A stretch of DNA of 64,000 nucleotides from Bispira polyomma (lineage: Eukaryota): assembly GCA_965649765.1 (NCBI GenBank), contig OZ287754.1, positions 18,600,001 to 18,664,000 of the forward strand, read 5' to 3'. Below the pieces are notes generated by a model. That model did no database searches. It was not told where the DNA came from and saw nothing but the letters and a program-made list of their open reading frames with translations. Numbering within the stretch: the first letter of the stretch is position 1; each line of letters starts with the position of its first letter. This document shows, piece after piece, positions 18,100 through 64,000 of the stretch. The translations under genes and the position numbers were made by a program.

Positions 18100-20215
18100 C
18101 ACTAAAACAAAGTTCACTTCAAGCAGAAGATCTTGGCACTTTTTCCAGAAGTACAGGGGGAAAATGATGGGAAAAATGTCATTATCATCTTTCCAAATGA
18201 CATGCAGCAAATGTTGAAACAAGCTTTTAATTTAACTATGAAAATGATGTTGCTGTTCTTGCAAAAGCTGCAAACATAGTGAGACATTATATATTCACAT
18301 TGGATCGGCAACCATTTGATGGTTCTTTCCTTGCTGAATGTCAGAAATCACTACCTACTAATCTGAAATTGCTTGACTCAATGCTTTTTAATTGGGCAAA
18401 TTTCAAAGGCCAAGAGCCGTTAGGTTCACAAAAGGGTCTTACCATCTCTGAGTCTATTATTTTCAACTGCAAGCAGCGTAAAACAAGCATGTGTACATCT
18501 CGTCACTCCACACCACCATTGCTGCTCGATGTTCGATTGACACAGCTTCACCTCTCTTCAATGAGAAGGCTGCAATAGCAGCTAGGATAAAACATGGAAT
18601 GGATATCCGTCGACAAGCTACAGAATTCCTCAACCCTGGACAGATACCAGTTATTGCAGTGGATGCTCCACTTTACGACCTGGCAAAGCATATCCAGTGA
18701 AACTGGAGTCAGACACATGGAGAAGAAAACTATGTCATAATGTTAGGTGGTCTCCATACTGAGATGGCACTGTGTCATACTTACAGGGACTACCTCTGAA
18801 AAGGACAAGACATGCTCATCAATTGACTGCTTTAGCTCTAGCCAAACTTCAACAGGATGCTTATGATACCACAGATGAGCCACACTCAGTGGAGGGTAAA
18901 GAGGCCTGGAAAAGAAACATGATTGACAAATCCTACTCTTTTCAGTATTGGGATACCATCTTCAACATGAAGTTGTTGCGACTCATTTTCGTCAGGGTGC
19001 ATAGAGATCAAAACTTTGCTTTGTATGTGGAGTGTCTGAAGGCATTGGCTCCTTGGTTCTTTGCTTTTAATCACCAAATTTGGCTCAGTGGATTCTTGCA
19101 TATATTAGAGACACGAAGAGCCTGCCGGAGTTTGAGGAGCAGTACCTTTCCAGAGAAAATGACAGCCAGATGCCATCATAAAGAAGGTATGTCAAAATCT
19201 CATCAATACCTTCAATGAGATGGAAAATTCTTTAATGGATGACATAACAGAACTCTTGAAGTTGGATACACAGGATGTCATGGATGAGTCTGTAGTCACC
19301 ACTGTACGGACAGTGGAAAAGATTGACTTGGACCAGTACAACCACTACTGCAAATCAGTGTTGATTGATCGCACAAAATCAATTCATGAGCCAATCAAAA
19401 AGAACTCATCTCCACTGTTCAAACTGTCCACACAAAAGGTAAAGAGCAAACAATCAGATTATACGTCAATGCTCAGAACTGATGTAGCCCTCTTCTCGCA
19501 GATCTATATTGTAATGCAACACCAGGATGGTGGACCGGATCAGCGCATTAGAGGATTTTTATCAATTTTGCGCTATATAAATGCTTCTATTATTATTATT
19601 ATCTATTATTATCATAGTGATTTAGATGCATTCTTTTAACATGAAAATCATCCATATGCCCCATCGTTATCAGATGGTGGAAAGTTTCACCAGGGCAAGA
19701 AAGCTAATTTACTGGCATGACTTGAAATTGACACACAAACTGAGCCACTCCTTTCCGTTGATGCCAGAATCATGGATGGAGCTGCTGGTTTACAGTTACT
19801 GCCCACAGTCAATGTTACAACATTTAGTGAATATGCGAAGGATCTATTCCTGTTGTACATCCTGAAGAAATTGGAGACATGCACTAGAGTTGACATCATT
19901 GGGGATGCTTATTTTCTATACAGCATCATAGCACTCCTTGCCTTTCACAGCTTCTCTGGATGTGATACAGTGTCTGCTGGTGTGGAAAAAAGGGAAGAGA
20001 ATGGGATTGCATGTATGGAGCTCCTACCCAGAAGTTACTGAAGCCTTTTATCAAATGGTAACAAAAGCGTTTCATAAAAAGGATGTTGACGATGCTTGCT
20101 TCAAGCTTTTAGAACGGTATACAGTCATCTTCCATGACAAAACATTAAAGCAGGAATTAATCAATGAGGCAAGGAAGAACCTGTTTTGCTAAATGAGCAA
20201 GACAATGGAAAACCA
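18100..20215 (+). pseudogene. Academ transposase with XPG-like nuclease region, fragmented
   Basis: HGM..LNPGQIPVIAVDAPLYDLAKHIQ..GEENYVIMLGGLHTEMAL; RTRHAHQ; PWFFA; LAFHSFSGCDTVSA. Confidence 0.85.
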
Positions 20216-41000: not shown

Positions 41001-43538
41001 TTAATGTTTTTACTGTTTAGAAGATGCTTGGAATCGATTGGCATTTTAAAAATCCATATGTTACTGTAATATAAACAACGTTTAGAATTTGGGTCTAACA
41101 TAGCTTTCAACACATGCATATATTCTGTACTGCAAATCACTGGTCTTCAGCAATTCTACTGTCACCACAGATTTCTTATGTATGCCTGGGTTGATATTTG
41201 AACCTAAGACTACAGAGATGGGAAGTAATAGTATTACCGTTAAACTGGTTAAGAGGACCAAAAGCTCCATTGTGTCATCGATTTGACATGGTTCAGTTGT
41301 CTGAAAGAATGCCAATGCTCAATATCAATGTTTTCTACAAGCATATGTTATTGTTTAGATCTTAGACACCATGTAGAAATATCAGCGTTAAGCTATAGTT
41401 TAAAAAAAGATAAATAAGTGCAGTGATATTTTGATGTGGTTTTGTAATATCGAACCATTAGTTTAAAACTTTAGCACAAGTTTGTTTTTGTTAAACAACA
41501 TTTGTCAAAAAAGATTTCCTAATACACGTATAGTATTTAAAAGATAAAGATTGCAAAGTCATCATAATCAATAAGTGACCACATCAGCTGATTTATAGTG
41601 TCAGTAGAAAAGTGACACATTTGAAAAGCTTTTAAAGTCAATGGTTGTGTATTTTGTTTACATTTCAAAAGCTCAACCATATTCAGGTCATTGCATAATA
41701 ATTGACTTATATTCAATCTAGTTTAACCCTGAAATCTTCATAATGCAAAGGTAATTGATGACAAACCTGCCTAACACAAAACACAGTCAAAACAGGTTCA
41801 ATGTAGAAAGACTTTTTTTACTTTTGTTATAAAACAGCCACATATTCTTGCATTCATATTTTCTGAGGAAACATTTCAGTAAATAATAAAATTATTGTTT
41901 AAGTGTATATGAGCAAAGCAACTGCAACTGTTTCTCTCAGACTAAAATCTAAAACTACCTTCAAAATGATGAAACTTGTGATGTTGCTTCTGCTTGATTT
42001 TTGGAAATTATCCAAATTAGAATCAACAAAGGGCTATCTCTGAGGCACTACCTAATGAAAAACAGATTTTTATGCTCACTCTTAATACTACAATTGCTCA
42101 GCTTTACTTTTGATTAAAACTGATAACATTAGTTGTATATATTTGTCAAAAGCCATCAGATGGCAAATATATGGATTATTTATCGCCTGTAGTCCCTCTG
42201 TAATTGTGTTAGTTTTCTGTTTACATGATATCACAAATACTTCTCGATGTACAGATCTCAGTGATGACATAGATGTGATCCCAAATGAAAACAAAATCCT
42301 CAGCTTGTAATAAAATTCTATACAACATCTAACTTTACCAAATTTACAGAACAATTTAGCTTGTGTAAGCATTTATTAAATATTGAGCAATCACTGGGCT
42401 CATTATACAAACGTACAGTTCTAACAACAGAAAACAAACCCAGAAATGACAAAATACACCACACAAGTCTGTATTACAAATCGTCAAGGTTGATTTTACA
42501 TATATATATTTGAACCTCTATTATCCAAACTTCGGTTAGTATGTGATTTTATGAACCATTTTTGCTTTCCAAAACAGTTTTTATTGTTTTATATTAAAAT
42601 GCCTCTTCTCTTTTTTAACCTTTTCCATTATTGGACGGGAATCTTGAAACACCCCATAGGTCTTGCATAATATAGGTTCTATTGTGTATATTGTTTTTAT
42701 GTGTGATCCAGTTTTGTGAAGTTGCTTCAATTCAATGTTGAAAGCTCTATTGTCACAAGCACAGGTTATTTCCATGTACAAATATATCCACACAGTTATA
42801 CATAAGTATAGCTATCATCTAAAACATCAACTTGGTCATGGACTGTTGTGTTATAGCACTGGCTGGCCAACATATACATGCGTGTGTGATTCATATTGAT
42901 ACTAGTAACTTGATTGTATTCACTTATTTACAGATGTGGGTAGTTTAAAGGACAATTTGGTGTGTTTTAGCACTGGATTACCATTATATACACAACTGAG
43001 TGTGTGATTCACATGACATTTTCTTGCATTGACTTGATTGTATTCACTTATTGATAAGTTCATGATACTGTTTTGTATGCTTAAGCATTGGCTGGCCCAA
43101 CCACTGAGTGTGTGAATACTCTGTGTATCGTAGCCCCATGTGACCTTCCTCAGAATGACCTGCCCTGTAAACAGTTCTATCCTGGTGCAGTGTGCGAGTA
43201 AGTGGGTAAATTTCAACTTCCAGAAATCTATTTGTTTACAAGCTATTCCTATTTGTGTTCAAATAATCAGTTATCATCAGTACATTTATTTACCTTTGTA
43301 TGCTATGAAAAATCAACACCTAACTCTGTCATTTGCATAACTAAAGACAGATGCTTGACATTTTAATAAAAATGTTGTAAATAGAAGGTCATGGCAAACA
43401 AGTTTAACAGTCAATGTTTAGAATACGATAAACTATTATCATGCAAACAAATGCTTAAACAAAACATTCTTTATTCGATATTGTACAAATTTTTGTTAGA
43501 TTTTCTGTGTTTAAAGCTAATGTTTTGATATTGATATA

Positions 43539-43594
<56 letters not shown>

Positions 43595-46500
43595 ATTTTT
43601 AATAAAAAATTACTTGTTTTACAGAAATACTTACTGCAACGGATGTCATGCCATCTGGAAGACTCCAAAAGGAAAAGTCATCAATTGTGATCCTTGTGGT
43701 TTGTAATTTAAAACCTCATTCTGTGGTCATTGTCATTATCTTTCATGGTCTGGTGATTAGACTTGTTCTGGTTATCACAAAGTCCCTGGTGTATACAGAA
43801 GTGGGGAGTTGTTTTGTAATCAGAAACTCTTTACTTCGACTACAGGTTGGAGGAGTTGATTTGGTGATCAAAAAGTCACCGGTTTAACTCCTTCTAATGC
43901 CACTAGATTAATTAGTGGGATAACATGTTTGGGCTAGTGGTTGTTGCTAACTGATGACAACCAAGGCTATATGTAATAGGGCTATCCCTGTTACTGGATG
44001 AGCACCTTAGAGGGTGATATATCACGAAAATGCTATTTATAAAAGCTTTAAAATTAGGAGTAATAGTAATAAGTTATTTCAATGAAAATAATTGAGAAAA
44101 CGTTGTGGCTATTGAATGTTATCAGTAAGTAATCTGTTACTGTATCAATATTGAAACAAGCAATATATCTACCAATGAAAACCTTTCAAATCTTTTGAGC
44201 TTCTCCTGATGAAGTCTGGGCAAAATATTCAGTCATATTTTACAAAATAGAATTTATTTTCAACAAAAAAACAAAGTACTATGACCACTGATACTAAGGT
44301 TTTTATTATTATTTTAGTGTTACCACTTTTGACAAAACAAAAATATCACAAGTGATGGGCAGCCAATCCCCACTGTATACAAATGTCTTTTTACCATATG
44401 TACCTTAACACTTTTGATGCCTTGGTGTTGCAATACAAACTTTTCTTTTGCATTCCCTAGCTTTCCCAAAATGTAAACAAGAGGAAATGGTTCTGTGCAT
44501 AGCAGATCCATGTCTATTGCAAGAAAAACCAAAATGTGGGAGGAAAAGTAAGAAAGCCACGTGTATGTAAGTATATTCTACCAAATATAGAAGTGCATAT
44601 ATACTCACTGTTCACATAAGGTTTAAAATAAAAGATATATCTCAGTATTTCATCATGAACTAAAAATACAAAATATTCACCATTGTTGAAAAATGGCAAA
44701 AGCATATTGTCTAAGTCGAAATTTTAACATGGTATTAATTTTAGCTGTTTTAGCCTATGACATGGACAATGGAAATTTATTCCAAGCAAAAATTTCAATT
44801 TTCGTCATGAAAAAAACCCAACTAAAAACAGGCAACAGTTTGTAAAAAAAAGTTGATCAGTAAATTTAGTTCAGCTAAAATTCTCACAGGTTCTCATGGT
44901 TCTTTTATAAGTATTTAACTGTATGAAGTATTGAATTGTATTTTGTTAAATTATAACATTCTTGTAGGACTATGCCTTATGGATGATCAGCACATCGCAC
45001 AAAAAAAAAAAAATACGGCAAAACATATCCATGGTTTCAACATTAAATTGAAGCAACTTCACAAAACTGGATCACACATAAAATAATGATATTGGTTATA
45101 TTAATTTTGTTTGTTTGTATATTTTAGTTCTAATTTCTGTGGAGGTTGCAATGCTGTATGGGTAGACCAGAAAGAACGTCAACTCCCACAGAGATGTAGT
45201 GAGTATACTTCTTGAGGGTTTATATGATTAAATACGGCTAGCCCATAATCTGACATTACCAGTGTATGTGTGATGCTTTGAATTTGTAATGTCAGATCTA
45301 AACCATGACGATAGATTTTACCACGATTGGAGGAGTAAAACATTGTATTGTATTCAACTGTGGTTAACCTATTTTTATCTGCCAACTGGCCCCAATAACT
45401 GCTATTCCCTTAATCGTTAGTATGCCACTGGGGATAGGACCCAATCACAGAGGACCGCGTTCCTTTAAAGTATATATCTGCCTGTACTTGGCCAATCCCA
45501 AACTGAGACAAACCCATGGCCTATCTGTTCATTCTTAAGTGACTGTGTCACCTGTTAAGACATTCTTTTTATCAATTACGGCAAAACATATCCATGGTTT
45601 TGTCATAGAATATAGAGGCCGCAGTGGCCTAGTGGTTAGCAAGCATTGCACTTTACAATCAGTTGTCTCTCACCACTGGAGATTGACTGGCATGGATTTG
45701 CCTATTTGGAAAAGGTGGTAGCTCCTTACTGTTGGCTGTTGGTTTCAGTGTAGAACATTGATCAACTGTATGCAGTGTTTCCTGCAACACTTCCAACTAT
45801 CCATCCCAATATTACCTTAACAGGTATTAGAGTGGACATCAAATATCCCAATTAAAATAAACAAAAAATAGTCAAAGAATATTTCTTCAGTATATGTTCT
45901 CATAACAATGTCACAACCTTTGGTGATGGTTCATTGTAAACAATATCTAGACTTAAAAACCTGTAATTATCACATTGTATCCTGTAATTATTCTTGTCTC
46001 CGTAGGACTTCAAGTATTTTGGTTATACTAAATAACCAGTATGAATTTGCTAATACTCAGAAGATGTAACCACACTTTTTCCTTTTGATTGAAAAAAATG
46101 CATGAAAGCATGTTATAACCAAGTTTATTGTCAAGTATGAGTGTATCCCTCAATTCAACACTTACTGGCCACGACATACTGCTGGGAAATCCTGCTAACT
46201 TGTTGGTCCTTTACCTTGGCAACAGAATGGAACAGCTGTGATTCCATGTCACACACCATGTCTCTATAATATAGAACCATGGTAAACTCTTGGTTTTCCT
46301 TAGCAAATGTCATTCATCTTGGCATTGCTTTGCTGTTGCTTGATCCTCGAAACCCCTCAAACCAATTGACCAACGAATGAATCATGCAAAGTGCACACCC
46401 TATTTACAATATGTTTCCAAGGGCATAACTCAAACAATATGGATGAAACTAATAATAAAACAGTTTGATTTAAAACTTAAGAGTGTAATTTTTGAATTCT

Positions 46501-46710
46501 ATATGACTTTTGTACACATATATTTGTCTGTTTCCAGACTGTATTGACTGTTTTGGCAAGTGGACAGTTAAAGTTAAGAATGAGATATGCAATGATTGCA
46601 CTTGTGCTGACCTCCGTGGGCAAGGCAAAACATTTGTGAAGAAAGCCTGTACAAAGTACAAGAATATCAAAAAGATGTGCTGTAATACTTGTGTGTGGGA
46701 AAAATCCTAG
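36408..46710 (+). CDS. Secreted Cys-rich protein, copy 3 (exons 2-6 intact; exon 1 uncertain)
   Basis: Exons 43086-43197, 43625-43698, 44461-44566, 45128-45198, 46538-46710 are in frame; the only intact exon 1 is 36408-36456 (MMKLVLLLLEFLWSQQ). Confidence 0.75.
36630..37900 (-). mobile_element. Decayed L1/Tx1 3' fragment
   Basis: ESLIHLFYY zf-RVT remnant, KYYIF..FKNRL tail; T-rich end. Confidence 0.6.
37490..37673 (+). repeat. Perfect 92-bp tandem duplication
   Basis: 37490-37581 equals 37582-37673. Confidence 0.92.
37838..38060. repeat. ~65-bp inverted repeat flanking a (TA)n tract
   Basis: atgtaactgctcttttccacagtag..aatgtctaatat and its reverse complement at 37996-38060. Confidence 0.9.
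40044..40050 (+). promoter_or_regulatory. TATA box of the Cys-rich gene promoter module
   Basis: gtgtatataaac ~50 bp upstream of the exon-1 ATG; tatatga at the equivalent site in the other modules. Confidence 0.5.
40097..40145 (+). pseudogene. Extra exon-1 copy with premature TGA
   Basis: MMKLVLLLF*FVWSQQ with intact gtaaat donor. Confidence 0.75.
41966..42005 (+). pseudogene. Extra exon-1 copy lacking its splice donor
   Basis: MMKLVMLLLLDF, followed by a deletion through the donor. Confidence 0.7.
43522..43588. repeat. (TA)n microsatellite
   Basis: Direct reading. Confidence 0.95.
45616..45865 (+). mobile_element. Older copy of the tRNA-headed SINE family
   Basis: gaggccgcagtggcctagtggttagcaagcattgc..gtattagagtggacatcaaat, homologous to the 34351 and 62373 copies. 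Confidence 0.85.
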
Positions 46711-46829
46711 ATTCTACAATACACCTAGAATCCAGGACAAAAATAACGTGTAAAAAATTCCTGCAACTGCAATTTAAATTTTATTTTTTTTCAAAAAAAA
46801 AATAGCATGCGTTAAAGATGCAAATGATA

Positions 46830-46972
46830 CATTACTGTTTTTTTAGCAAGTCGACTGTAAAAATTCAGAAATACATACTAAAGGATTGCACTGGTACTGA
46901 CCTCTGTGAAAAAGGCAAAACGTTTTTAAAGACATTTTTGAAATCTGCAAAAGGCACAACGACATCAGAAAG
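46830..46972 (+). pseudogene. Degenerate partial duplicate of exon 6
   Basis: SKSTVKIQKYILKDCTGTDLCEKGKTF resembles SKWTVKIKKDICKDCTCGDLRDKGKKF. Confidence 0.75.
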
Positions 46973-51417: not shown

Positions 51418-53208
51418 TTTTTTTATATATTTTATTTATTAACAACAAAAAAGGAGACATTCACAAGTTATAGTAGGCATTGTAGATAGAGTTTTATACT
51501 GTACAATCTCATATTGATATGCTTGCAACAAAAGAATATAGTACCTGTATTACACAAATGTTCAAAAATCCATACTTACATTAAATACAAAACATTACTC
51601 ACAATAAATTTTACAATAGTGTTGTTTACTTTCTATGTTAATCTTTTTGAATTTCTGTTTTTATAAAACATCATAAAGTAACCCAAAGTTTTTGTTAACT
51701 AAATGATCTTGTTTGTATTGATCATTTATTATTTTTTCTATATAAAGCTTATCCTTGAGTATTACTAAAAAATCTAAAAAAAACTTTGCTCTTTTGTTAC
51801 GCTTGCATTTGCTGACAATATGTAGTATTTACCCATTAATGTGACATAATTCAACACATAAAAAAATTAAGGATCAAACTTGATAAATCCTAGTAAAGTT
51901 TTCAAAACAGTTAAGTCAACATTTATATCTAATGAAACAGATAACTACGTTTTAATTTGTTCCCAGAACACACATACAGTCTTGCAATAGTAAAGATAAT
52001 GTTAAAGATTGTAGATTTCTGAACACCAGTCACAATGTGGTGAATTAACTATACTCCAAAGAAATAATTTATAATTACAATAATAAACCCTGTGCAAAAT
52101 TTTATATTGTAGAGTCTGAATATAAGTATCTTTAACAATTTTAAAACTTAAAGGATATATATTCCTCCAGTCAGCATTTTCAAGAAAAGGATAATATTCA
52201 ATCCATCTATCTTTACTATTTGAAGGTTTCATATTCTTATGTACAAGGTAATTATATACCTGTTTACTTTTTACTTTAGACAGGTTGCCAAGACAAAGTT
52301 TTGGAATGTTGTTAGACATATTAGCACTAGAAGTGTTTTCTTTTTTAAGTAAATATTTCCAATCTGAGGGTATAGCGCTTATCAAGTTATTTTATTTCAT
52401 TACTGGGATACAGATATTATATTTAGACTCCTGATTTGATTTTGTTTCAAAGATTGCCTGGTGATCTTTTAATTCATCAGCAATATAACAAATACCTGCG
52501 TTGAACCAATCTGTATATTCAATGTTTATTATTTTGATTCCAATACAGATTGCCGTATTATTTCACAATTTTTTTTGTTTTACTTCGAATGCATTTCTAT
52601 GTGGAGCTGCAATGAAACTGTACCAAGTGTATAATAAATCAGTATAATAATCAGTTTTTGGTAAGTTTTTAATACTTGAAACAGGTAGTTTGTTATACAG
52701 CTGCTTTGGCCTTGATACACATCAGATATTCTGATAAAGACTTCCATTTAGCATTATTATTATTACAGAATCTATTTATCCACATTATATATGTTGTTTC
52801 AACAAGACACTTTGTAGAGACAATATTTAAACCATCATTTTTAACCGATACAATTAGTGTATTTTTTTACACTAGATGTTTACATTTTATCAAGTTGAAA
52901 TATTAAAGTTTTATTCAAAGGAAAGACAGAAACAATCTGATAAATGTGTGGGATGATTAGAGATTATAAAACTGTGATTTTACCTTTAATTGTTAAACAT
53001 CTGGACTGCCACCAATTAAGGATTGATTGAATTTTGTGCATCTTATCTCCAATGTTTAACTGAAACATTTCTTCAGAATTAGTGGAAAACTACATTCCTA
53101 GTGTCTTAAATGGTCCAACTTTACAGGCAATATCACATATCTTTTCAGAAACATCCTCTAAATTTTCAACTAAGATTGCTTCTGTCTTGACTTTATATAG
53201 CTTTCAGT
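51418..53208 (-). mobile_element. L1/Tx1 LINE, 3' half of ORF2, decayed
   Basis: KTEAI, RCLTIKGKITV, LQYKILHR, CDWC; A-rich tail at ~51418-51440. Confidence 0.88.
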
Positions 53209-53705
53209 GCCCTACCCTAATGAAGTTGTCTGATGAGTAACACGGGTAAGTAAAAAGGCAAAGATGGGGATATTAGTTTAATGCTTCTATGTTATATATC
53301 TAATATTATTTACATACTGGAGTTTTTTAGGGCCACCTTAGCACCAGACATTTAAAAATTTGAAAAGTTAAGGTGACCTTAACCTGAGAATTTCTCGGTT
53401 AAGGTGTGGAAAATTTTGAATTTAGGGTAGCCTTAACTTGAGGTTAGGGTTAGCTAAGATTGAGTTTAAGATAGTAATTTTAAGGTTACCCTAACCTAAA
53501 AGGTTAGGGTGAGATAAAATAGGTTTTAAATTTAGAAATAGGAGGTAACCTTAGTTTGACTTAAGGTTGCCGAAGATGATTTATTAAATGTATATGAAAA
53601 TATTTAAGATGAAATGAGGTGGTAAGGTGGCCCAAAAGATTTATCTTCAACATTTAAGTATACAATAATAGTGTAAAAGTATGTAAATGAAGCCCCAAAG
53701 CCCAA

Positions 53706-54509
53706 TTAGGAGGTAGTGGTTTTGGAAAGTAGAGTCTGAAATGTCAGGGCCACCTGTTCAGAGGAATTGTGGTCCTGGACTATATACTTCCACACACAAT
53801 CTAAGGTCCAAGTGCCATGACTTTGGATATCTAGGATTGGTACATTACTATTAAATGCTAATGTGGCACCTGAACGACGGAAGGTGTCGAAGGAGATAGC
53901 CGAGTGCTGAAGACCCAGGCGGGTAAGTATTAAAGAGAGATTTTTCCTAACTTGAGAGTCAATCATGGGAAACCACTTCTGGGCTTTTTTAAATTGGAAT
54001 AAGGGAGAGTTTTTGTTACCTGGAGTAATTGCCAATAAAATCCTAGTGGCTGACACTAGGCATAATGGGGAGCCATTTAAGGCAGGAATTTTAAGTACTT
54101 TAACAACATTTTTGGACTGAAGTATTTTGGACCATTTTATTATAATATGCAAGCCCGTGGGAGCAAAAAATAAATCGCCTCTTGCTAACTAAACTAAAGG
54201 AGAAAACTGGCCAGCAGCATGAGAGACCAAATTTGAAATTCTTAAGAAAGAAAAGAATGCTACCAGGTATAAAGCCTTGAACACTAGACCCATGTACATA
54301 CTGTCACACGTGTGTATAATTTTATGAACGAGTGGAATGTCTATAATTGCTTTGATTTTTGCCCTGAAAGGGCTGTTTAACACTAAGGCTTTCTGATAGT
54401 ATTTGATACGAGGATCTGCAAAAGTAGCAGTATCAAGGCCAAAAATAGCCATCTTTGCTTTGATGGCGGACAGGTAATTTGAAATTGAAGGAGAGGAGAC
54501 GTTATTTAC
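53706..54509 (-). pseudogene. Tyrosine recombinase of element 3, C-terminal part
   Basis: NYLSAIK, FLRISN, KWSK, TFRRSGAT, HGTW..VWKY; one frameshift. Confidence 0.9.
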
Positions 54510-54972
54510 CACAGGCCCCACCAACCCCAGGGAAAGAAACCTTAAAGACACATGAATTGAGCTTACTATTTTTATTATACATAAAATTGAGGTTATTGCT
54601 ACTACTACAATATATTTACACATCCATTAAGTATACATGTTAAGTTCGTTATACACATTTAATTAGTACATTATGTATACTGATAAACCTTTAATTAGTA
54701 CATTCTTGATTCTGGCAACCTTAACTCAACACTCAGTCTTTCAAGTTAAGGTTGGTTTGACAGTAAACTATGATCACCTTAACATCACTTTAAGGGGACC
54801 TTAATGTTTCCTTGATTTAAGACATAATGATACAATTAACTTTAAGGTAACATTAACATGTGTATAATTTTGAAATATTGAGTAATAAGTAAAATTCATG
54901 AACAGTAATAGCATAACATAACAGTAAAATTTCCTTCAAGCCCAACAGTAGTGTAGTGCTGCATTTATGTAG

Positions 54973-55971
54973 TTATTTATCTAATATTGATTGAAACGAA
55001 CGAGCTACTTGCTCCCCCAAGTTATGGTCTGCCTGGATGTACCTCCACACACAATCTGACGTCCAGGTGCCATGATGTTTGATCTGTTGTATTGGTATAT
55101 TTGCATTATAAGCAAAAGTAGCACCTGAACGTCGGAAGGTGTGGAACGTAAAGTAATGCGGGTCCAGACCCAATTGTACATTGAGTCTAGACAAAGTTTT
55201 CCTAATACGGGTATCCGTAAGCACTTGCCAACCTGCAGCAGTTCTGCACTGGAATAAGGGCTCATGTTGCTGAGGGTTATACAATTGAAATACGTCACGC
55301 AAGGCTCGGTATGGACAGAGGTGTGATTCACCTAGCTTGGGGAGACTAATGACATTGACCTTGTTTCTGTCTTGCATTGTCTTAGTCCATTTTATTAAGA
55401 CCTTGACCAGAGACTTGGTGAAGAAGACATCGCCCCCTGCCAAGTTTCTAGTGCTGTCAAAAGTATGCAAAGAATGTGGGGCAAGATTTGAGGCTCTAAA
55501 AAAACCAAAAAATGCTGTTAGAAACACAGCCTTGAAAACCTTGCCATGATGCATTTTTTCACATAATGATATCAAACTTTTTAGTGTTACCACATCCATG
55601 ATGTTTCTACGCGTTATTGATATGGGTCTATTAATTCTAACTGCTTTTACAAAGTACTTGATTTTGGGTTGCTCAAGGCACTGATAGGGGAGATCATAAA
55701 TGATGCATTTTGCCTTTATGGCTGATATATAATTGCTAATCATGTTGACTGAGACTCCACTTAGCACCAAACATTCCATAAAGGCCAACACTACCTCAGT
55801 ATTGATATCTGCTAATTTAACTTTGACATGTAAACAAAATGACACAAAGTTCTTGAATAACATGCTGTAACATCTTTGGGTCTTTGGTCGAAATGCCTGT
55901 TGCAATCTAGCACTTGCCTGACCCGACAGCCTTGCCACCACACTGTGACCTACAACAAAGTATAGTATCAT
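54973..55971 (-). CDS. Tyrosine recombinase of element 2 (intact frame)
   Basis: FFRASN, KWTKT, LCPY, HTFRRSGAT, HGTWTSDCVWRY supply the R-K-HxxR-H-Y catalytic set. Confidence 0.93.
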   Translation of the reverse strand: MILYFVVGHSVVARLSGQASARLQQAFRPKTQRCYSMLFKNFVSFCLHVKVKLADINTEVVLAFMECLVLSGVSVNMISNYISAIKAKCIIYDLPYQCLEQPKIKYFVKAVRINRPISITRRNIMDVVTLKSLISLCEKMHHGKVFKAVFLTAFFGFFRASNLAPHSLHTFDSTRNLAGGDVFFTKSLVKVLIKWTKTMQDRNKVNVISLPKLGESHLCPYRALRDVFQLYNPQQHEPLFQCRTAAGWQVLTDTRIRKTLSRLNVQLGLDPHYFTFHTFRRSGATFAYNANIPIQQIKHHGTWTSDCVWRYIQADHNLGEQVARSFQSILDK

Positions 55972-55994
55972 TAGTTATCAGTATGTGCTGTAGA

Positions 55995-57819
55995 TTATAA
56001 GTCATTATCTAATTCTAACATTTCAATACACACAGGAAGCCATACTGGCTGTTGCACATACAATAATAATTCACTGTTATTTTCCACTGTATTCTGCCAT
56101 CTAGACAGGAGATCGGCAGTCCTATTCAGTTTGCCCAGGACATGGATGTACTGTAGATCTACATCTGCCAGTGCAGCCAGATACCACACATTCCTGGCAC
56201 AGGCCCCCAAGAAAGGGTCCCTGGCCCGACCTGACTGCAGCACTTTTACTACAGCATCATTGTCACATTTAATTAGCACTCATCTACCACTCCAATGTTT
56301 GTAAAACAACCTCAAGGCAAGTAATATATTGATCATTTCTAAATGAACAATATCTAGCTGTTTGTAACCCCTACATATTCCAAGGTGGTATACCATGTCT
56401 TTCCATCTGCCCCCCAAACCTGTTAGGCAAGCATCTAGTTCTAATATAAAATCAGCATTTTTATGGTCATACATCGATATGCCATTGTATGTTGGCAGAA
56501 ATTTAGCGAACCACCTCAAGTCCCTAAAGAAGTCTGCAGTCAATTGAATTTTGCCCCCATGCTGGCTTTTTCTCAAGAGCTCCAGCATCCTGTTTAAGAA
56601 GAACCTGGCCGGCTTTACACATTTGTGTACATACAGTAGCAGCCCCAAAAGGGACTGCAACTGCCTAATAGTACAAGTTTTTCGGTTATGCCATTCCTTG
56701 ACAACTTCATTAATTTTGTACAACTTATCTTGGGGAATCGAGATAGTTCCAGTTTCTGTATTAATGAGGACTCCCAAACACACAGCCTGTGTGCTAGAGG
56801 GTATCAATTTCTTTGCACTAATCGTGAGACCCAAATTTTCCAACAATTGGTATAGGCATTCATAGGACTTCTTTGCTACAGTACCCAATATAATCGTCAA
56901 TGTAGTCCACGACACTGTAACCACGACAACGCATGACATAACGGACACCGTCACTTAATCGTTGAAAAATTTGACTTCCGTGTCTACTCCCAAAGGGAAG
57001 ACAAGTGTCAACGTATGCGCCTTTCCATGACAAGCCCAGCAAGTCGTAGTCACATGGGTCGTTCTTTACATGACGAAATGCCCTACTGACATCTATTTTA
57101 TAAACATGCGAGCCACGGCCTAGTTTTCTAAGCTCATCTGTGATGTGATCTACTGTGGGAAAAGTCAAGCAGAAGTCAGTGCCTAGATAAGTATTCTTAT
57201 CTACCCCTGCATTTACTGAGTGTCCTTCCGGCCAACTCAAGTCTATTATCACACGTCTATTAACCGACCCTGGCTTGTGTCTAGTCATGAAGGGGGAGTA
57301 ATGCCCCCCCTTTATTGGATGTTTGTCAAAAGGACCTATAATCGCCCCATGTTTTATTTCTTCATTTAAATAGGCTTCTATGTCTTCAGGGAAATTAACA
57401 GCTGACTTGTGGTTTTCCCCCTCCCACACCAAATCAGTGTTCCTGTTAAAGTCCAATGGAAAACCATATTCAATGAACTCTAGTATTTCCTGGTCCCAGT
57501 AGTCTTTTAATACCATTTTCCAATGGTCTACCTTTAATTGGGAGTTGACAGGTATTCGTGCCTGTTGAAAATTGAATTTGCCAGTTTTGGTGACCTCAAA
57601 ATGTGCCTTAATCGGGTCAGTCATTACTGGTGCCTGAGTTTGAACAATATCATGGTGAAGTGGGTCTGATAATGGAACAAAGCCATAATTAAAGTCAGTC
57701 TGTTCTTGCCACTGTCTGTGTGCTAACACCCTGTCCACTAAACCTGTCACATCTCTATGTTTGTATAATATTGAATGGACAAATTTATCACCCTCACCAT
57801 TTCTGTTTATGTCAAACAA
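55995..57819 (-). pseudogene. RT-RNase H of element 2
   Basis: YGFPLDF, RRVIIDLS, KIDVSRAFR, LPFG, YIDDY, ELDACLTG, IKCDN; one frameshift and one stop. Confidence 0.93.
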
Positions 57820-57843
57820 CTGTGTTTGTTTCCCCTCAGCCTT

Positions 57844-58539
57844 TTATTTCAATTCACTGCACGTGGTACTAGTACTAACTTCATTTGCAGATGTATTGTT
57901 ACTGGCTAATTGAATCCCATCCCCACAATGTTCAATCAAGTCTTGACACTTCTTTTGTTCCCCACCCGTGACTCCCCCCAGAACAAGGGAGGGTGTTATG
58001 CCCCTACTTGTTATGGTTGGGTCACACTTCACGGTTTGTGTACACACTTTCATTGTCTGCTTTACATTGTTGACAATTTGGGGACACTTGCTTTGTTTAA
58101 ACACTCTCTCAGTGACAAGTTTGGTTTTCTTGTTTGTACTAGCTCCCTGAGCATTAACCCAAATTTCTTTCATATCAATTCTAGAGGGACAGTGCACGTA
58201 CCTAATCCAATTTTCCTTTCTACCTGCTAACAAAGCCTCAACGTTTTTTCTGGCAGTTTTTGAATTATAAAAAGTTCTGGTTCTATAACACTCGTGTACA
58301 TGAGCCTGATTTTTAACATTGAACCTGTCACTGAGAACCGTGTTTTTAAAACTCTTTGCTATTCTACCTTTAGTAAAACACATATTACCAACACAGTGAT
58401 TAAACCTCTGAACACATTTTCTATCAACAACATTACATAACACTTGGTTAATCTTGTCTGGAGTATATACCTCTGGTTCCTTATACACAATGCTGCCCAC
58501 TTTTCTTACTAAAGGTGAGCAGCTGGCTGCTCGTTTTTT
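57844..58539 (-). CDS. Linker ORF in the -1 frame between gag and RT (probable pol N-terminal extension)
   Basis: Open ~230 codons starting at the AAAAAAC site; positional equivalents in elements 1 and 3. Confidence 0.55.
   Translation of the reverse strand, partial: KKRAASCSPLVRKVGSIVYKEPEVYTPDKINQVLCNVVDRKCVQRFNHCVGNMCFTKGRIAKSFKNTVLSDRFNVKNQAHVHECYRTRTFYNSKTARKNVEALLAGRKENWIRYVHCPSRIDMKEIWVNAQGASTNKKTKLVTERVFKQSKCPQIVNNVKQTMKVCTQTVKCDPTITSRGITPSLVLGGVTGGEQKKCQDLIEHCGDGIQLASNNTSANEVSTSTTCSELK
58492..58539 (-). promoter_or_regulatory. Putative -1 frameshift signal (element 2)
   Basis: A AAA AAC, then 9 nt, then stem gctgctcac/gtgggcagc. Confidence 0.65.
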
Positions 58540-59651
58540 GAATGAAAATATTTCTTCCCAAACATACAGTCCTTTTCTGGGTGACCACTCACCCTTCCCC
58601 TCTCCAGACAAGAAGAACATATATGTTTGTGGATTTTGCCACCGTTCTCGTAGTCCTTACTCTGGCTACAAGCCCCAGTTTGATACACTTTACAATACCA
58701 ATGTTTACCACCCCGATTAACATCTGAATTTTTTCCCCAGTTATTTTTACTTGGTACTACATGCTTTTGTGCATGAGCACGTCGAATCCTATCTATTCTG
58801 TGACTATCTTCCCATTTCAGGGCACCCCTTTCCATCTCACAAAGCAGCACAGCATGTGCTGCTTTAGCTGTCTGCCACGAGAAATCAGTGGCATCCTCCA
58901 TCAAATCTGACATGTATAGTAACATTTTCTCTTTAATATCGGAGTCTTGCTCCTCAACAATATTCTTGGTAAAACCCTGCACCCACTGAGTGAGTGACAA
59001 CTGATCATAGGAAATGCGTTGCCTAGTAGTGCCACCCAATATTGTTTCTTGGGGCCAGGAGACTTTGCTTTTAACTATTACCTCAATATTACCCCCCCTT
59101 TTTGATTTAATTTTGTTTGCCCCATCATTACCTTTCTGGCTCGTGGACTCAGCCTCTAAAGCACGAACACGAGCATCCACCTGCTTTTGCAGCTCATTTG
59201 AACTTCTCAACACAGATAATTTGGGGACAATTTCCTCATCAGAGGATGACTCTGAAGAATCTACTACTTTGTCAACAGTACGTTTTTTACTTTTACTGGT
59301 TTTCTTATTTAAGTTGGCACTACTTAACTTAGGATTGTTCTGTGAGGACGATTCTGCTGCTCCTGTTGATTGACCAATGGCCACCTTGTCCTCCACCAGG
59401 TCCAGCCGTTCATTCACCTTCCGCAGCTGTTTTAGGATCAGGCGTTGCACATCTTCTTCATCAGATGAAGATCCAGAGTCCATTGCTGTTGTCATCCGGG
59501 TGTCTTTGCTCTTCTTGCTCTCTGCCCGTGTGCTCCTCATAGGGGACTTTTCTTTCTGTGGTTTCAAAGCACCAGCAGTGCAGTTCCTTCCCGTGGGGGG
59601 GTAGTGTCTCAACATACACTTATTACATTTCACTTTATTTTTACTAGGCAT
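58509..59651 (-). CDS. gag/ORF1 of element 2 (380 aa, intact)
   Basis: CNKC..H..C N-terminus; WPQETILGG; DRIRRAHAQ; C-terminal CKVYQTGAC..HICSSC..HPEKDC. Confidence 0.88.
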   Translation of the reverse strand: MPSKNKVKCNKCMLRHYPPTGRNCTAGALKPQKEKSPMRSTRAESKKSKDTRMTTAMDSGSSSDEEDVQRLILKQLRKVNERLDLVEDKVAIGQSTGAAESSSQNNPKLSSANLNKKTSKSKKRTVDKVVDSSESSSDEEIVPKLSVLRSSNELQKQVDARVRALEAESTSQKGNDGANKIKSKRGGNIEVIVKSKVSWPQETILGGTTRQRISYDQLSLTQWVQGFTKNIVEEQDSDIKEKMLLYMSDLMEDATDFSWQTAKAAHAVLLCEMERGALKWEDSHRIDRIRRAHAQKHVVPSKNNWGKNSDVNRGGKHWYCKVYQTGACSQSKDYENGGKIHKHICSSCLERGRVSGHPEKDCMFGKKYFHSKNEQPAAHL

Positions 59652-60200
59652 TGTTTATGCTCCAGAATTGTTCATATATAGTCCAGTATCTAGAAAGGAC
59701 ACACACACACACACCACCAGTACGCTGTTTGAGGCAAATCCAAGCTTGATAGCCAAATTTCAAATAAATTACCCTGTTAATTAAATATTATATGTAAACA
59801 TTCCTTTTTAAGAGACCCTTTCGAGTCAAATCAAGCATGAGGTTGTCAAAGAGCGTGTGGTAGTGGTATAGAGGTCAATATTCCTTGAAGAGTAGACACA
59901 AACACAAAAAGTTAAAAAACTAAAATATGTAAAATGATAAAGTTCAGCATATAAAAAGTCCTCAAAAACACAATTCAATTATTCACATCTGACTTGTCCA
60001 TTAAGTCAGTTCAAACTGAGAAAGTATGGGGGGTTTCTTGTAAACAAGCTAGGCTTAGCCAATGACATAAGTTGTGTATCTTATTGCCTAGGTACTAGAT
60101 GGGGATTCCAGCTGACATCACAAAATAAGCAATTAGCCTGGTATCCTACTAATTTTGAATGGGGTTAAGGCCTGACCCCTGTGATGCCTCGACACCACAG

Positions 60201-60390
60201 ACGACTAGTACCTCTAGGAAAGCTAGAATGATGATAGGTGTAATAACGTGAGGGCTGACCTGAGCAAAACTGCAAAAGGCCAAGAAGATCCTAAACATAT
60301 TTGTGTATGCCCTCTGAGTGCTTGGTCTAAAGGCTTGGTGTATTCTAACTGAAGCTCGAGTGGCAATCTTTTTTAAGTGAGAGGGTGCTT
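60201..60390 (-). pseudogene. Tyrosine recombinase of element 3, N-terminal part
   Basis: EAPSHLKKIATRASVRIHQAFRPSTQRAYTNMF..LAFLEVLV, homologous to the YR N-termini of elements 1 and 2. Confidence 0.85.
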
Positions 60391-60398
60391 CTGAAAAA

Positions 60399-62219
60399 TT
60401 AAATAGACCAATCTATTTCTAACATGGTGGCTTGCACCTTAAGCCATTTGGGATTTGGTAATAATTCTGATAATTTATTGTCACTATCAGTGGTCAAGTG
60501 CCATCTTGAAAGCAGGTCAGCCACCGTGTTTAGTCTGCCTAATATATGTATGGTTTTGAGGCTTATGTCGACGGATGCCACCTCCATAAATATGTTTCTG
60601 GCAATTGCTGCCAAAGTGAGATCTTTAGTTTTACCCGAATTCAGGACTGTAACTACTGCTGCATTATCACACTGCAGTATTAGTCTTTTGCCTGCCCAGG
60701 TGGATTTCCATAGTCTGATAGCTACTAGGATATTTAACATTTCGAGATGGACTATGGTCATATTTAGGTATCCTAAGGGAATGGAATACTCATAGGCTTC
60801 ATTATTACAACGACCCCCCATCCCTTGGAGGCAAGCGTTCAGTTGAATACAGTCAGTAGTGGGATCATGGTCGTAAAAGGCCTTTCTATTAAATTTAGGG
60901 AGAAATTTTGTGAATTAGTTTAGGTCTTGATGGAATTCAGGTGAGAGACTGCTTTTTTGGTTAGCACCTATTGACCTTAGCACATCAACCATGCGATTTA
61001 AAAATACTCGTGAAACTCTTACACATTTTGAAACATAGAGAAGTTTTCCCAGAAGTGATTGCAATTCTCGTTTTGAACATACGTTCTTATTTTGCCAGTC
61101 TTGAACAAGGGCACTGATGTCTTTTAGTTTTTTCATCAGGGAGGGAGACCGTTAAATCTACTGTATTGACTAGCACTCCCAAACATACTACTTCAGTACT
61201 AAGGTGGACGACCTTTTTCTGGCTCAGCACGAAACCTAACTCTCGGAGCAGACTGTGCAATATATCAAATGAGCGTTTGCTTTCTGTGACGTCACCATAG
61301 CTGATTACGTCGTTGATATAGTTTGTGGCGTCACAACCTTGGTTTCTCATTATGTACCTGACGGCGTTGCTTAAGCGCTGAAATATTGCACTTCCGGGTT
61401 TAAAACCGAATGGGAGACACGAGTCTATGTAATACTTGTCTAATTTAAGTCCCAAAAGATTATAGTCAGCCGGGTCCATCTTTACGTGACAGAACGCGTG
61501 GCCGACGTCAATTTTATATGAGGATGTACCTCGACCTAGACGGGCAATTTTGTTGGTAATGGTATCAATAGTTGGGAGAGTCAGTACGAAAGGAGTATCT
61601 AGGTATTTGTCCTTAGCAACTGCTGAATTAACGGATTCCCCGTGTGGAAAACTTAATTATGAAACATCTATGCCCCCCCCCCCCCCCCAGGTTTCTCCCT
61701 GGTCATAAAGGGGGAGATATGGAGACCTTTAATAGGAATTTGCTCAAAGGGGCCTAACATAGCACCGAACTGCGTTTCTTCATCCAAATAGGCTTTAACG
61801 TCACCCGGATACTGAATCGCTGACTGATGGTTTGTCTTTGTATGTGAGAGTTTGCTGTCTCGCTAAAAGTCAAGCGGGAAACCATATCTTATTAAAAGGG
61901 GCAACTGTTTGTCCCAATAGTCACCGAGATACTTCTGCCAAACATCAGGGTTCAATTCTGATTTAATTTGTATCTGAGGACCCATAAAATTTGCGCACTG
62001 TTGCTCTTTAAGACGACTGTGTAATTCTAATAACGTAACGTCTGACTTTACTTGCTTGTCCATATCGGGAAGCCGGAGTTTACCAAGCGGTATGAAACCA
62101 TACTTGTCACTGGCCAGGCTATTATCAACGGAATCATTGTCCTGCAAGGGTGTGAATTTATTGTTTATGGGGACTACCCAATTTCCCTCAACTAGGGGGC
62201 CACTTTGCACCCTGTTCAA
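60399..62219 (-). pseudogene. RT-RNase H of element 3
   Basis: YGFPLDF, CLPFG, YIND, LQSLLGKL, HLEMLN, LQCDN; multiple lesions. Confidence 0.9.
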
Positions 62220-62372
62220 CTTGTCACCTGAATTCCCTTTATTCTCTTTTACAACATGACCCCTGTGAGGGGGGAGGACACACTGGTTAAACCAAGGGAT
62301 TTGTTTTTGACTTCCCAGCGAGTGACATTGGTTGAATTATTTTCACCTGTTTGCTTCCAGCTCCCTTTGTTT

Positions 62373-62617
62373 TGAATTTGAATTTGGATATTTAACGTCC
62401 ACTCTAGTACCTTTTAGTAGGTTATATTGGGACGGGTAGTTGGAAACGCTGGAGGAAACACTGCATACAGTCGGTCAAGGAAACCAGCCGCCCACAGTAA
62501 GGAACTACCACCTTTCCCACATAGGCATCGATGGGATTCAAACTCACGCTGCCCAGAGGTGAGAGACCAGTGATTGTGAAGCGCAATGCTTGCTAACCAC
62601 TAGGCCACCGCGGCCCC
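62373..62617 (-). mobile_element. Young tRNA-headed SINE inside element 3
   Basis: Perfect 17-bp TSD tccagctccctttgttt (62356-62372 and 62618-62634). Confidence 0.92.
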
Positions 62618-62860
62618 TCCAGCTCCCTTTGTTTCTAATTTTAAAAACAGCAGGACTGTGAAAGACTTTGGGGTTTTCTGCCCCAGACACAGTAATTGCT
62701 GCACCTGAAATATTTTCATCAACTCCACACAATACAACATTTGACTTCTGATAATTGGTACACATTTCTGTCACATTTTTCATACTGTTACTTACAATAT
62801 TTTTCATGATATTAGAGCCTTTAACTACATTTTATTGCTGCTTTAGAGGATACAGGAGTG

Positions 62861-62895
62861 GGCACTGCAAGAATGCAGTGCCTTACTCGTTTTTT
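62861..62895 (-). promoter_or_regulatory. Putative -1 frameshift signal (element 3)
   Basis: A AAA AAC gag taa, then perfect hairpin ggcactgca-ttct-tgcagtgcc. Confidence 0.7.
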
Positions 62896-63660
62896 ACAGG
62901 ATTTTTTCGACAATCCTTGGCAGGGTGTGGGACAGATTTGCCAGTCTTGTAGCATTCACTGCAGATATGGCTGTAGGTTATACCCCTAGTCTCGTGCTCA
63001 CCTTTGTGAGGGCATGTACCCTTTTGGTAACATCTGCAGGGAACAGATCTCTCATGATTTCTCTTGGGATTTGTGCTACTATTTTGAGATTGTGTTGTGA
63101 TCTTTTGGGCATGTGCCCTCCTGATCCTATCTATTTTATGTGAATCCCTCCATGATACTTTCCCTTCTGCCATCCTACACAACAATACAGCATGGCTGCC
63201 CTTAGCGGAGGCCCAAGAGAAATCATGTGAGTCCTCCATAATATCTGCTAGATATTCTAACATGGTTTTTTTGGCAAAACCAGCTACCCATTGTGACATT
63301 GACAGAGAGTCATACGATACTCTGGATTTATTTTGACCCCCCAATATATAGCTCTGAGGCCAAAACACCTTATTTTTGAGCCATACTGTCTCAGTGCCTC
63401 CCCATTGGGACTTGCACGTACCTGCTTCTTTATCTGTACTAGTTTTTTAAGGTGAGAGTCCACGGCAGTCTACAGGGAGTGGGAGGTCCTCAACGTCTGG
63501 AGTGTGGGCACCAGGAGTTCATCGAGCTGGGCAGTGGCAGTCATCTGGACAGGATTCTCCAACCTCGCAGTTGTGGGTTGGGCTCTATGCTCCCCGTGAT
63601 CGACCCTCTGCTCGACTTTAGACATATGATTACTTAGGGCTTTCAGTTCGGCAAGTGTCC
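62883..63660 (-). pseudogene. gag/ORF1 of element 3, 5'-truncated
   Basis: WPQSYILGG, SWASAKGSHAVLLC, DRIRRAHAQ, CRCYQKGTC..HICSEC..HPAKDC. Confidence 0.88.
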
Positions 63661-64000
63661 AAAACTAGTTTGTTCTTTTTGTTTATCGATAGTGCATATA
63701 AAATGACAAAAACATAAGAAGCATCAGAAATTGTACATTCTACAAGCAATAATCGACCTTCCTTGTCTCTGACAGTATTAACTACATCAACACTTAACTG
63801 TTTTGACATCAGAATAGCAACTCCCCTACAATTTGACTGCCCATGTGAAAATACAATTCTACTATCCCATTCCTCTATCCAATTTGTCTCGACTGAAGAT
63901 ACTGAATGTGTTTCCTGGAGGAAAAAGATGCCAGTATCTTTGGCTTTCAACCATGTAAAGATTACCTGTCTTTTCTTTTTATTAGCTAGGCCGCTTACAT
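63661..64000 (-). mobile_element. L1/Tx1 ORF2 endonuclease (APE) N-terminal fragment
   Basis: VSGLANKRKR..FFLQETHS..W..FSHG..RGVAIL..DKEGRLL..LYA. Confidence 0.9.

Follow-up and report, generated by a model that had tools for sequence, protein, structure and literature searches.

A predicted spliced Gag–tyrosine recombinase fusion in Ngaro-type retrotransposons of Bispira polyomma

Retroviral env and foamy virus pol are made from spliced subgenomic RNAs. In Ty1/copia elements, according to the available passages of PMC5580714 and PMC3735527, the splicing of gag balances the products of one transcript. For murine leukemia virus (MLV), the available part of PMC10496198 describes an SD' mRNA that joins a donor inside gag to an acceptor close to where pol ends, placing N-terminal Gag in frame with the gene of the integrating enzyme. 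Of integrase, the resulting P50 protein carries the last 116 amino acids (aa) alone; it acts as an accessory regulator, and Gag-Pol is the source of integrase itself. For tyrosine recombinase (YR) retrotransposons, the passages at hand treat YR as a separate third open reading frame (ORF) and leave its route of translation unstated. Here, we analyzed three such elements in a stretch of 64,000 nucleotides (nt) from Bispira polyomma (assembly GCA_965649765.1, contig OZ287754.1, positions 18,600,001 to 18,664,000), hereafter the window. All three lie on the minus strand, and each has gag-like, reverse transcriptase (RT)/RNase H (pol), and YR frames. Sequence comparison indicates that the recombinase is very probably made as a fusion of the N-terminal half of Gag to YR, translated from a spliced, shorter mRNA.

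A preliminary description of the window had proposed this fusion on the basis of six splice sites, and all six were recovered at the minus-strand coordinates it gave, each in phase 1. The donors in gag (slash, exon boundary) are GGAG/GTAAAA at 31294/31293 in element 1, AAAG/GTAATG at 59132/59131 in element 2, and GCAG/GTACGT at 63422/63421 in element 3. The corresponding acceptors at the YR start are TTTACAG/ at 28204, TTGTAG/ at 55949, and TTTTCAG/ at 60390. The predicted introns measure 3089 nt (28205..31293), 3182 nt (55950..59131), and 3031 nt (60391..63421), respectively. In element 2, the unspliced product is the gag-like ORF1 of 380 aa (58509..59651). The predicted exon 1 coding part (59132..59651) contains 520 nt from the gag ATG at 59651 to the donor, that is, 173 codons and one base. 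Within the GT...AG intron lie the 3' half of gag and the entire pol. The acceptor enters YR at codon base 2, and the predicted exon 2 coding part (54973..55949) runs for 324 open codons past the junction codon to a TAA, encoding a complete tyrosine recombinase. By arithmetic, the spliced product has the 498 aa claimed for it. In element 1, a degenerative frameshift lies about ten codons 5' of the donor, as reported earlier, and, measured against the KSQCGG frame downstream, the donor is in phase 1. Elements 1 and 3 indeed have no ATG ahead of YR, none being present between the in-frame stop and the junction codon; in both, the YR exon has its first Met at residue 32. The stop in element 3 is 8 codons before the junction codon, and element 1 also has one, at 6 codons. 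Sequence hallmarks of a GT-AG intron were found: donor and acceptor consensus, a pyrimidine tract, AG depletion, and matching phase.

For the comparison, three protein searches supplied 80 further elements, selected for their long open YR frames. Together with the window copies, this gave 83 elements, 82 of which could be anchored in YR and were grouped into 37 families at 80% identity. One element (L108) was left out because the pattern found no YR anchor in it, and the donor counts omit 19 elements in which no gag motif could be located. The median pairwise identity was 54%. Three clades were distinguished, with 19 families in that of element 2 and 18 in the other two together. One of the three search queries included eight residues 5' of the acceptor; the other two, and the genome-wide anchor scans, did not. 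The spacing between the gag motif and the donor, 7–8 or 3 codons, was assigned by eye.

In 80 of the 82 elements, the acceptor AG precedes the A-F-R-P anchor by 53 nt (element 2's clade) or 56 nt (other clades); in the remaining two (L102 and L168), it is one base off. Among the 37 family representatives, with these two aligned on the AG, position -5 is T in all 37, position -6 is T in 36, and position -3 is always a pyrimidine, which gives the consensus TTNYAG. AG is depleted over the 20 nt upstream of the acceptor (7/629 positions, compared with 147/2590 further up and 258/2590 in the exon). Six different residues are encoded by the codon whose last base is the acceptor A, and A occupies 868 of the 2942 four-fold sites in YR. 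Genome-wide, TTNYAG was present 53–56 nt upstream of 553 of 682 YR anchor matches, and the reversed-pattern controls yielded 0 and 28. Database YRs are compatible with this pattern: among 120 sequences, 43 have a long enough N-terminus, and 40 of these carry an AG-compatible residue pair at one position. In all 19 families of element 2's clade, a CTATRCTTT motif occurs 16–19 nt upstream of the acceptor (55965-55957 on the minus strand of the window). This motif is found in two frames relative to YR (12/19 and 7/19 families) and therefore is not a peptide; it is likely an RNA-level signal. We make no claim for a branch-point reading of the GATACTAT motif, which the other two clades lack.

The donor could be located in 63 of the 82 elements, with G/GTA in 61, G/GCA in one, and G/TTA in one. 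At the level of families, AG/GTA is present in all 33 with a locatable site. Its five bases cover three codons. In the codon before the Gly, the wobble base is A without exception, although five residues (S, G, T, A, and K) occur there, and in one decayed copy this residue is replaced by a stop codon. GGT invariably encodes the Gly, and the codon after it has A as its first base throughout while specifying six residues (K, T, N, I, M, and S). For comparison, GGT accounts for 84 of 218 gag Gly codons, and for 25 of 61 in the neighboring KSxRGG motif. Away from the homologous site, phase-1 AG/GTA was encountered 3 times in 3923 codons (11 gag ORFs). A G at position +5 is found in just 7 of the 33 families. 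Database gags have Gly followed by a residue with an A-starting codon in 75 of 82 cases, against a background of 395/932. In a predicted model, the donor lies within a low-confidence linker (172–179) between a helix (152–173) and a folded domain (182–296), and the part of gag in exon 1 comprises a Cys/His motif and two long predicted helices. ORF1 of element 2 had no Pfam or PDB match and no clear fold match. As a separate observation, one otherwise intact-looking copy (L111, of the L101 family) has GC for GT at the donor, which may be a GC-AG donor or decay.

Donor and acceptor phases match in nearly all elements. Both signals are kept at the nucleotide level and in phase across the 37 families, which supports the proposed spliced gag-YR mRNA. 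The conservation of donor, acceptor, and phase holds for the families of this genome and extends to distant relatives. Sixteen metagenome loci were found, of which seven include the YR start (27–37% identity; L172 and L173 are nearly identical); the other nine, in which this start is not shown, were dropped. By eye, all seven have a phase-1 YAG past a pyrimidine tract, and all four distant gag ORFs have a phase-1 AG/GTA past the last exon-1 helix, with site homology being approximate for L173, L175, and L176. In four of these loci (L171, L172, L173, and L176), the stretch ahead of the acceptor contains an in-frame stop and lacks an ATG. Gag and pol of the distant relatives share one frame across a TGA (L171:1121, L173:3229, L175:1193, and L176:1990, where the following bases are TAT, CAA, CTG, and CTA). 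This suggests that these elements reach pol by stop readthrough, not by frameshifting.

Exon 2 matched Pfam PF00589 (E=1.6e-4) and SAM-like entries. Its predicted model matched Cre over the full length (Foldseek E=5.9e-8, TM 0.62, 14% identity). It has the core-binding and catalytic domains and the R...HxxR...Y motifs of tyrosine recombinases, and R151, H269, R272, and Y303 (exon-2 numbering) are invariant or nearly so in 23 sequences. Judging from the model, exon 2 alone would be a whole Cre-like enzyme. Cre has no Gag-derived N-terminal extension, unlike the predicted Gag-YR.

Retroviruses use the heptamer A AAA AAC as a -1 slippery site. All three window copies have it in the gag frame, with a hairpin, close to the gag stop (58533-58539, 62889-62895, and 30719-30725, minus strand); in element 2, the heptamer and the 3' hairpin together span 58492..58539. 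In 26 of 33 families, an automatic tally with at least one doubtful pick (L168) found the heptamer together with a hairpin at or below -12 kcal/mol. Pol is likely made by -1 frameshifting from gag. A splice acceptor for pol was considered and rejected; seven introns share none, and the slippery site was found instead. In one copy (L126:1905-5561), gag and pol form a single frame of 1219 codons, and the database protein P0292 also runs gag into pol.

The class definitions for YR retroelements were taken from the available passages of PMC4157794, PMC8547959, PMC9210276, and PMC13465315. By their structure, the elements are Ngaro-type YR retrotransposons. The gag-like ORF, RT/RNase H, and YR follow in this order on one strand, and split direct repeats (A1-ORFs-B1-A2-B2) place internal repeats 3' of YR. 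Both the A and the B pairs were present in seven copies (L095, L131, L135, L140, L156, L157, and L158). Across 40 ten-kb loci, both pairs were found in 6, and the three window copies have neither (A-ORFs-B form). No methyltransferase domain was matched at E<=0.1 in any of six pol ORFs of intact relatives, and pol ends about 30 residues past the RNase H ADLLSRW motif. The DIRS1-like class was rejected, the repeats being direct rather than inverted and the methyltransferase domain absent. The PAT-like class, as defined in the available part of PMC4157794, does not apply either, with split repeats present and methyltransferase absent. The likeness to Ngaro-type elements therefore covers ORF order, the lack of a methyltransferase, and, in the seven copies, split direct repeats downstream of YR. 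The elements differ by a conserved spacer of 330–930 nt between A2 and B2, and by the prevalence of the A-ORFs-B form. Moreover, YR barely overlaps pol here, and its predicted expression, by splicing from gag, is a feature that does not occur in the literature passages at hand. The spacer itself (L131:7234-8165, L135, L140, L156-L158, and L095) is family-conserved and apparently non-coding. The A2-spacer-B2 unit is missing altogether from most copies.

In the mechanism that we propose, unspliced RNA would yield Gag, and also Gag-Pol by the -1 frameshift at A AAA AAC and its hairpin. A fraction of the RNA would be spliced, with the removal of about 3.1 kb, and would encode a protein of 460–515 aa in which the gag Cys/His motif and long helices are joined to a complete Cre-like enzyme. 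More speculatively, the recombinase may, through its gag part, assemble together with Gag and accompany the cDNA, and the weak donor may allow full-length RNA to survive. The upstream ATG in element 2's clade may yield a second, stand-alone form of YR. We lean slightly toward the broader reading that Ngaro-type YR, in animals and beyond, is expressed solely as spliced Gag-YR. This would be an ancient rule, reaching below 30% identity, with the Gag half acting as an address tag for the particle. One RNA would then give three proteins, by plain translation, by recoding into pol, and by splicing into YR.

Several points weigh against the spliced fusion. The spliced molecule was not seen, the splice is a prediction, and this donor is paired with this acceptor by phase alone. 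According to the available part of PMC10496198, the SD' RNA of MLV yields integrated intronless copies. None were found for these elements: gapped-motif searches, one per clade, gave 0 matches, with a method that works in itself and uses exact motifs, so that decayed copies are missed. No gag-YR fusion protein appeared among the best 150 of 665 gag-exon-1 matches, ten of which were looked up and all came from ENA contigs. Five of the seven long YR proteins were examined (P0126 and P0127 were left out), and none combined gag exon 1 with YR. The gag-exon-1 alignment likewise contained nothing among the longer proteins, and 23 cluster members have no YR domain. Three runs of unrecorded kind over 52500-64000 cover flanks and single-copy stretches in the way DNA does and are uninformative on expression; the 59132/55949 joint was not among the 15 joints listed for them, beyond which there are 213 further joints. 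The eight upstream residues in one query may favor similar acceptors in that query's clade. The nominal p of 2e-14 is overstated, because the families share ancestry and the counts are not independent.

A further point against the fusion is an in-frame ATG located 5–8 codons upstream of the acceptor, at differing offsets, in 16 of the 19 families of element 2's clade. In element 2, this ATG (55969..55971) lies within the predicted intron, 7 codons 5' of the junction codon. The subgroups of the clade differ by a 2-nt shift of the motif, and the in-frame ATG is kept nonetheless. YR might thus be translated alone from this ATG, by re-initiation after pol or from an internal promoter, with the splice-like sites being secondary. 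Many database YRs start with MLYFV or MLCFV, which also speaks against the fusion but is weak evidence, because gene callers force a start. The other two clades behave differently. There, none of the 18 families has an ATG within 8 codons, 4 have one within 40 (scattered), and in 16 the first Met is residue 32, inside a predicted core helix (21–40). The four distant loci with an in-frame stop have no such start, and the invariant gag donor would be left unexplained. The preliminary description had named family-wide translation of YR from its own ATG as an outcome that would count against splicing; this pattern holds for most of one clade and is not family-wide. As the general explanation we regard it as improbable, and an own ATG could be a second route in element 2's clade.

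Both sites could also be real but not form a pair; alternatively, the spliced RNA could be regulatory and lower the amount of full-length RNA, the fusion not being a working enzyme. The unseen pairing leaves room for this, and the MLV Gag-integrase splice product P50 is a transcriptional regulator in the available part of PMC10496198. However, the phases match in nearly all elements, and the acceptor requires a coding phase-1 exon upstream. Alternative partners are rare, with just the three other phase-1 sites in 11 gag ORFs when AG/GTA donors only are counted, and the other TTNYAG sites in seven introns share no position that opens pol. Exon 2 is a whole enzyme with its catalytic motifs kept. 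We consider such an arrangement highly improbable. Release of YR from a Pol-YR polyprotein by readthrough or frameshifting would be compatible with the shared pol and YR frame of 9 of 32 measurable families, and one database protein (P0121) is a pol-YR fusion. Nevertheless, all three frame offsets between pol and YR occur (9, 13, and 10 families), at a spacing of 6–80 nt, which makes recoding unlikely. Protein-level or chance conservation of the motifs is opposed by conservation that includes wobble positions and crosses codon boundaries while the residues vary, and by the reversed control of 0. This group of explanations is largely refuted, and we give it hardly any credence.

The nearest parallel to the predicted Gag-YR is MLV P50, a spliced fusion of Gag to partial integrase. 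In contrast with MLV, the whole recombinase is contained in exon 2 here, without another conserved route. Splices in long terminal repeat retroelements yield Gag, Env, or Pol, whereas here the product would be a Gag-tagged integrating enzyme that skips RT. A literature search that did not cover Poulter and Butler 2015 or Goodwin and Poulter 2004 returned no description of splicing into YR of DIRS/Ngaro elements. The available passages of PMC7192593, PMC9341512, PMC8547959, PMC3783388, PMC9210276, PMC6681497, PMC4157794, PMC3266345, PMC9940879, PMC13465315, and PMC10496198 contain none. The novelty of a spliced Gag-YR in Ngaro-type elements is therefore provisional. YR retrotransposons are widespread, and a conserved splice would answer how YR, which often lacks a start codon, is translated. 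Compared with its annotation, the real enzyme would gain about 150 residues, and YR ORFs now recorded as truncated or start-less would be intact. Counts of active elements would require both sites. A precise junction should be findable in RNA-seq from any animal with Ngaro elements.

The preliminary description of the window had missed two features of its anatomy, namely that element 2 is nested in the YR gene of element 3 and that its pol is broken. Element 2 (about 54504..60204), of the A-ORFs-B form, was delimited by copies elsewhere in the genome that are 97–99% identical (L126-L128). Its position inside the element 3 YR gene was established by tblastn, and by blastn against L131/L135/L139. 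Its pol (RT, RNase H; 55995..58539) is interrupted by stops and a frameshift; the relative L127 has an open frame of 890 codons. Element 3 (53205..63649; slippery heptamer at 62895) is degenerate and 5'-truncated, and is interrupted by element 2 and by a 247-nt high-copy repeat (62371-62617). The 5' part of its YR (60205..60390) reaches to the element 2 insertion, and the 3' part (53721..54512) lies beyond it. The YR at 54512-53721 was considered as a fourth element and rejected, being this 3' part. Element 1 (26489..31995) is degenerate, with the gag ATG at 31778 and the slippery heptamer at 30725. At the element 2 insertion points (60204 and 54504), the termini show TG/TGTG-like overlaps, typical of a circle junction.

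Other repeats were observed in the window. The 247-nt repeat in element 3 resembles a short interspersed nuclear element, has a very high copy number, and recurs at 34351-34607 and 45614-45865. Fragments resembling long interspersed nuclear elements are located at 63633-63998 (minus strand), 2037-3457 (plus), and 52005-52391 (minus), with a weak endonuclease match and a zf-RVT match (E=1e-6); one of them adjoins the truncated 5' end of element 3. The segment 17354-20828 has long terminal inverted repeats (119-nt arm, 98%) and two unannotated ORFs at 18763-19636, and is likely a DNA transposon. Interspersed repeats occur in the same order three times (5400-9900, 23000-26400, 32600-33900, and 43000-46900), which suggests an old segmental or tandem triplication.

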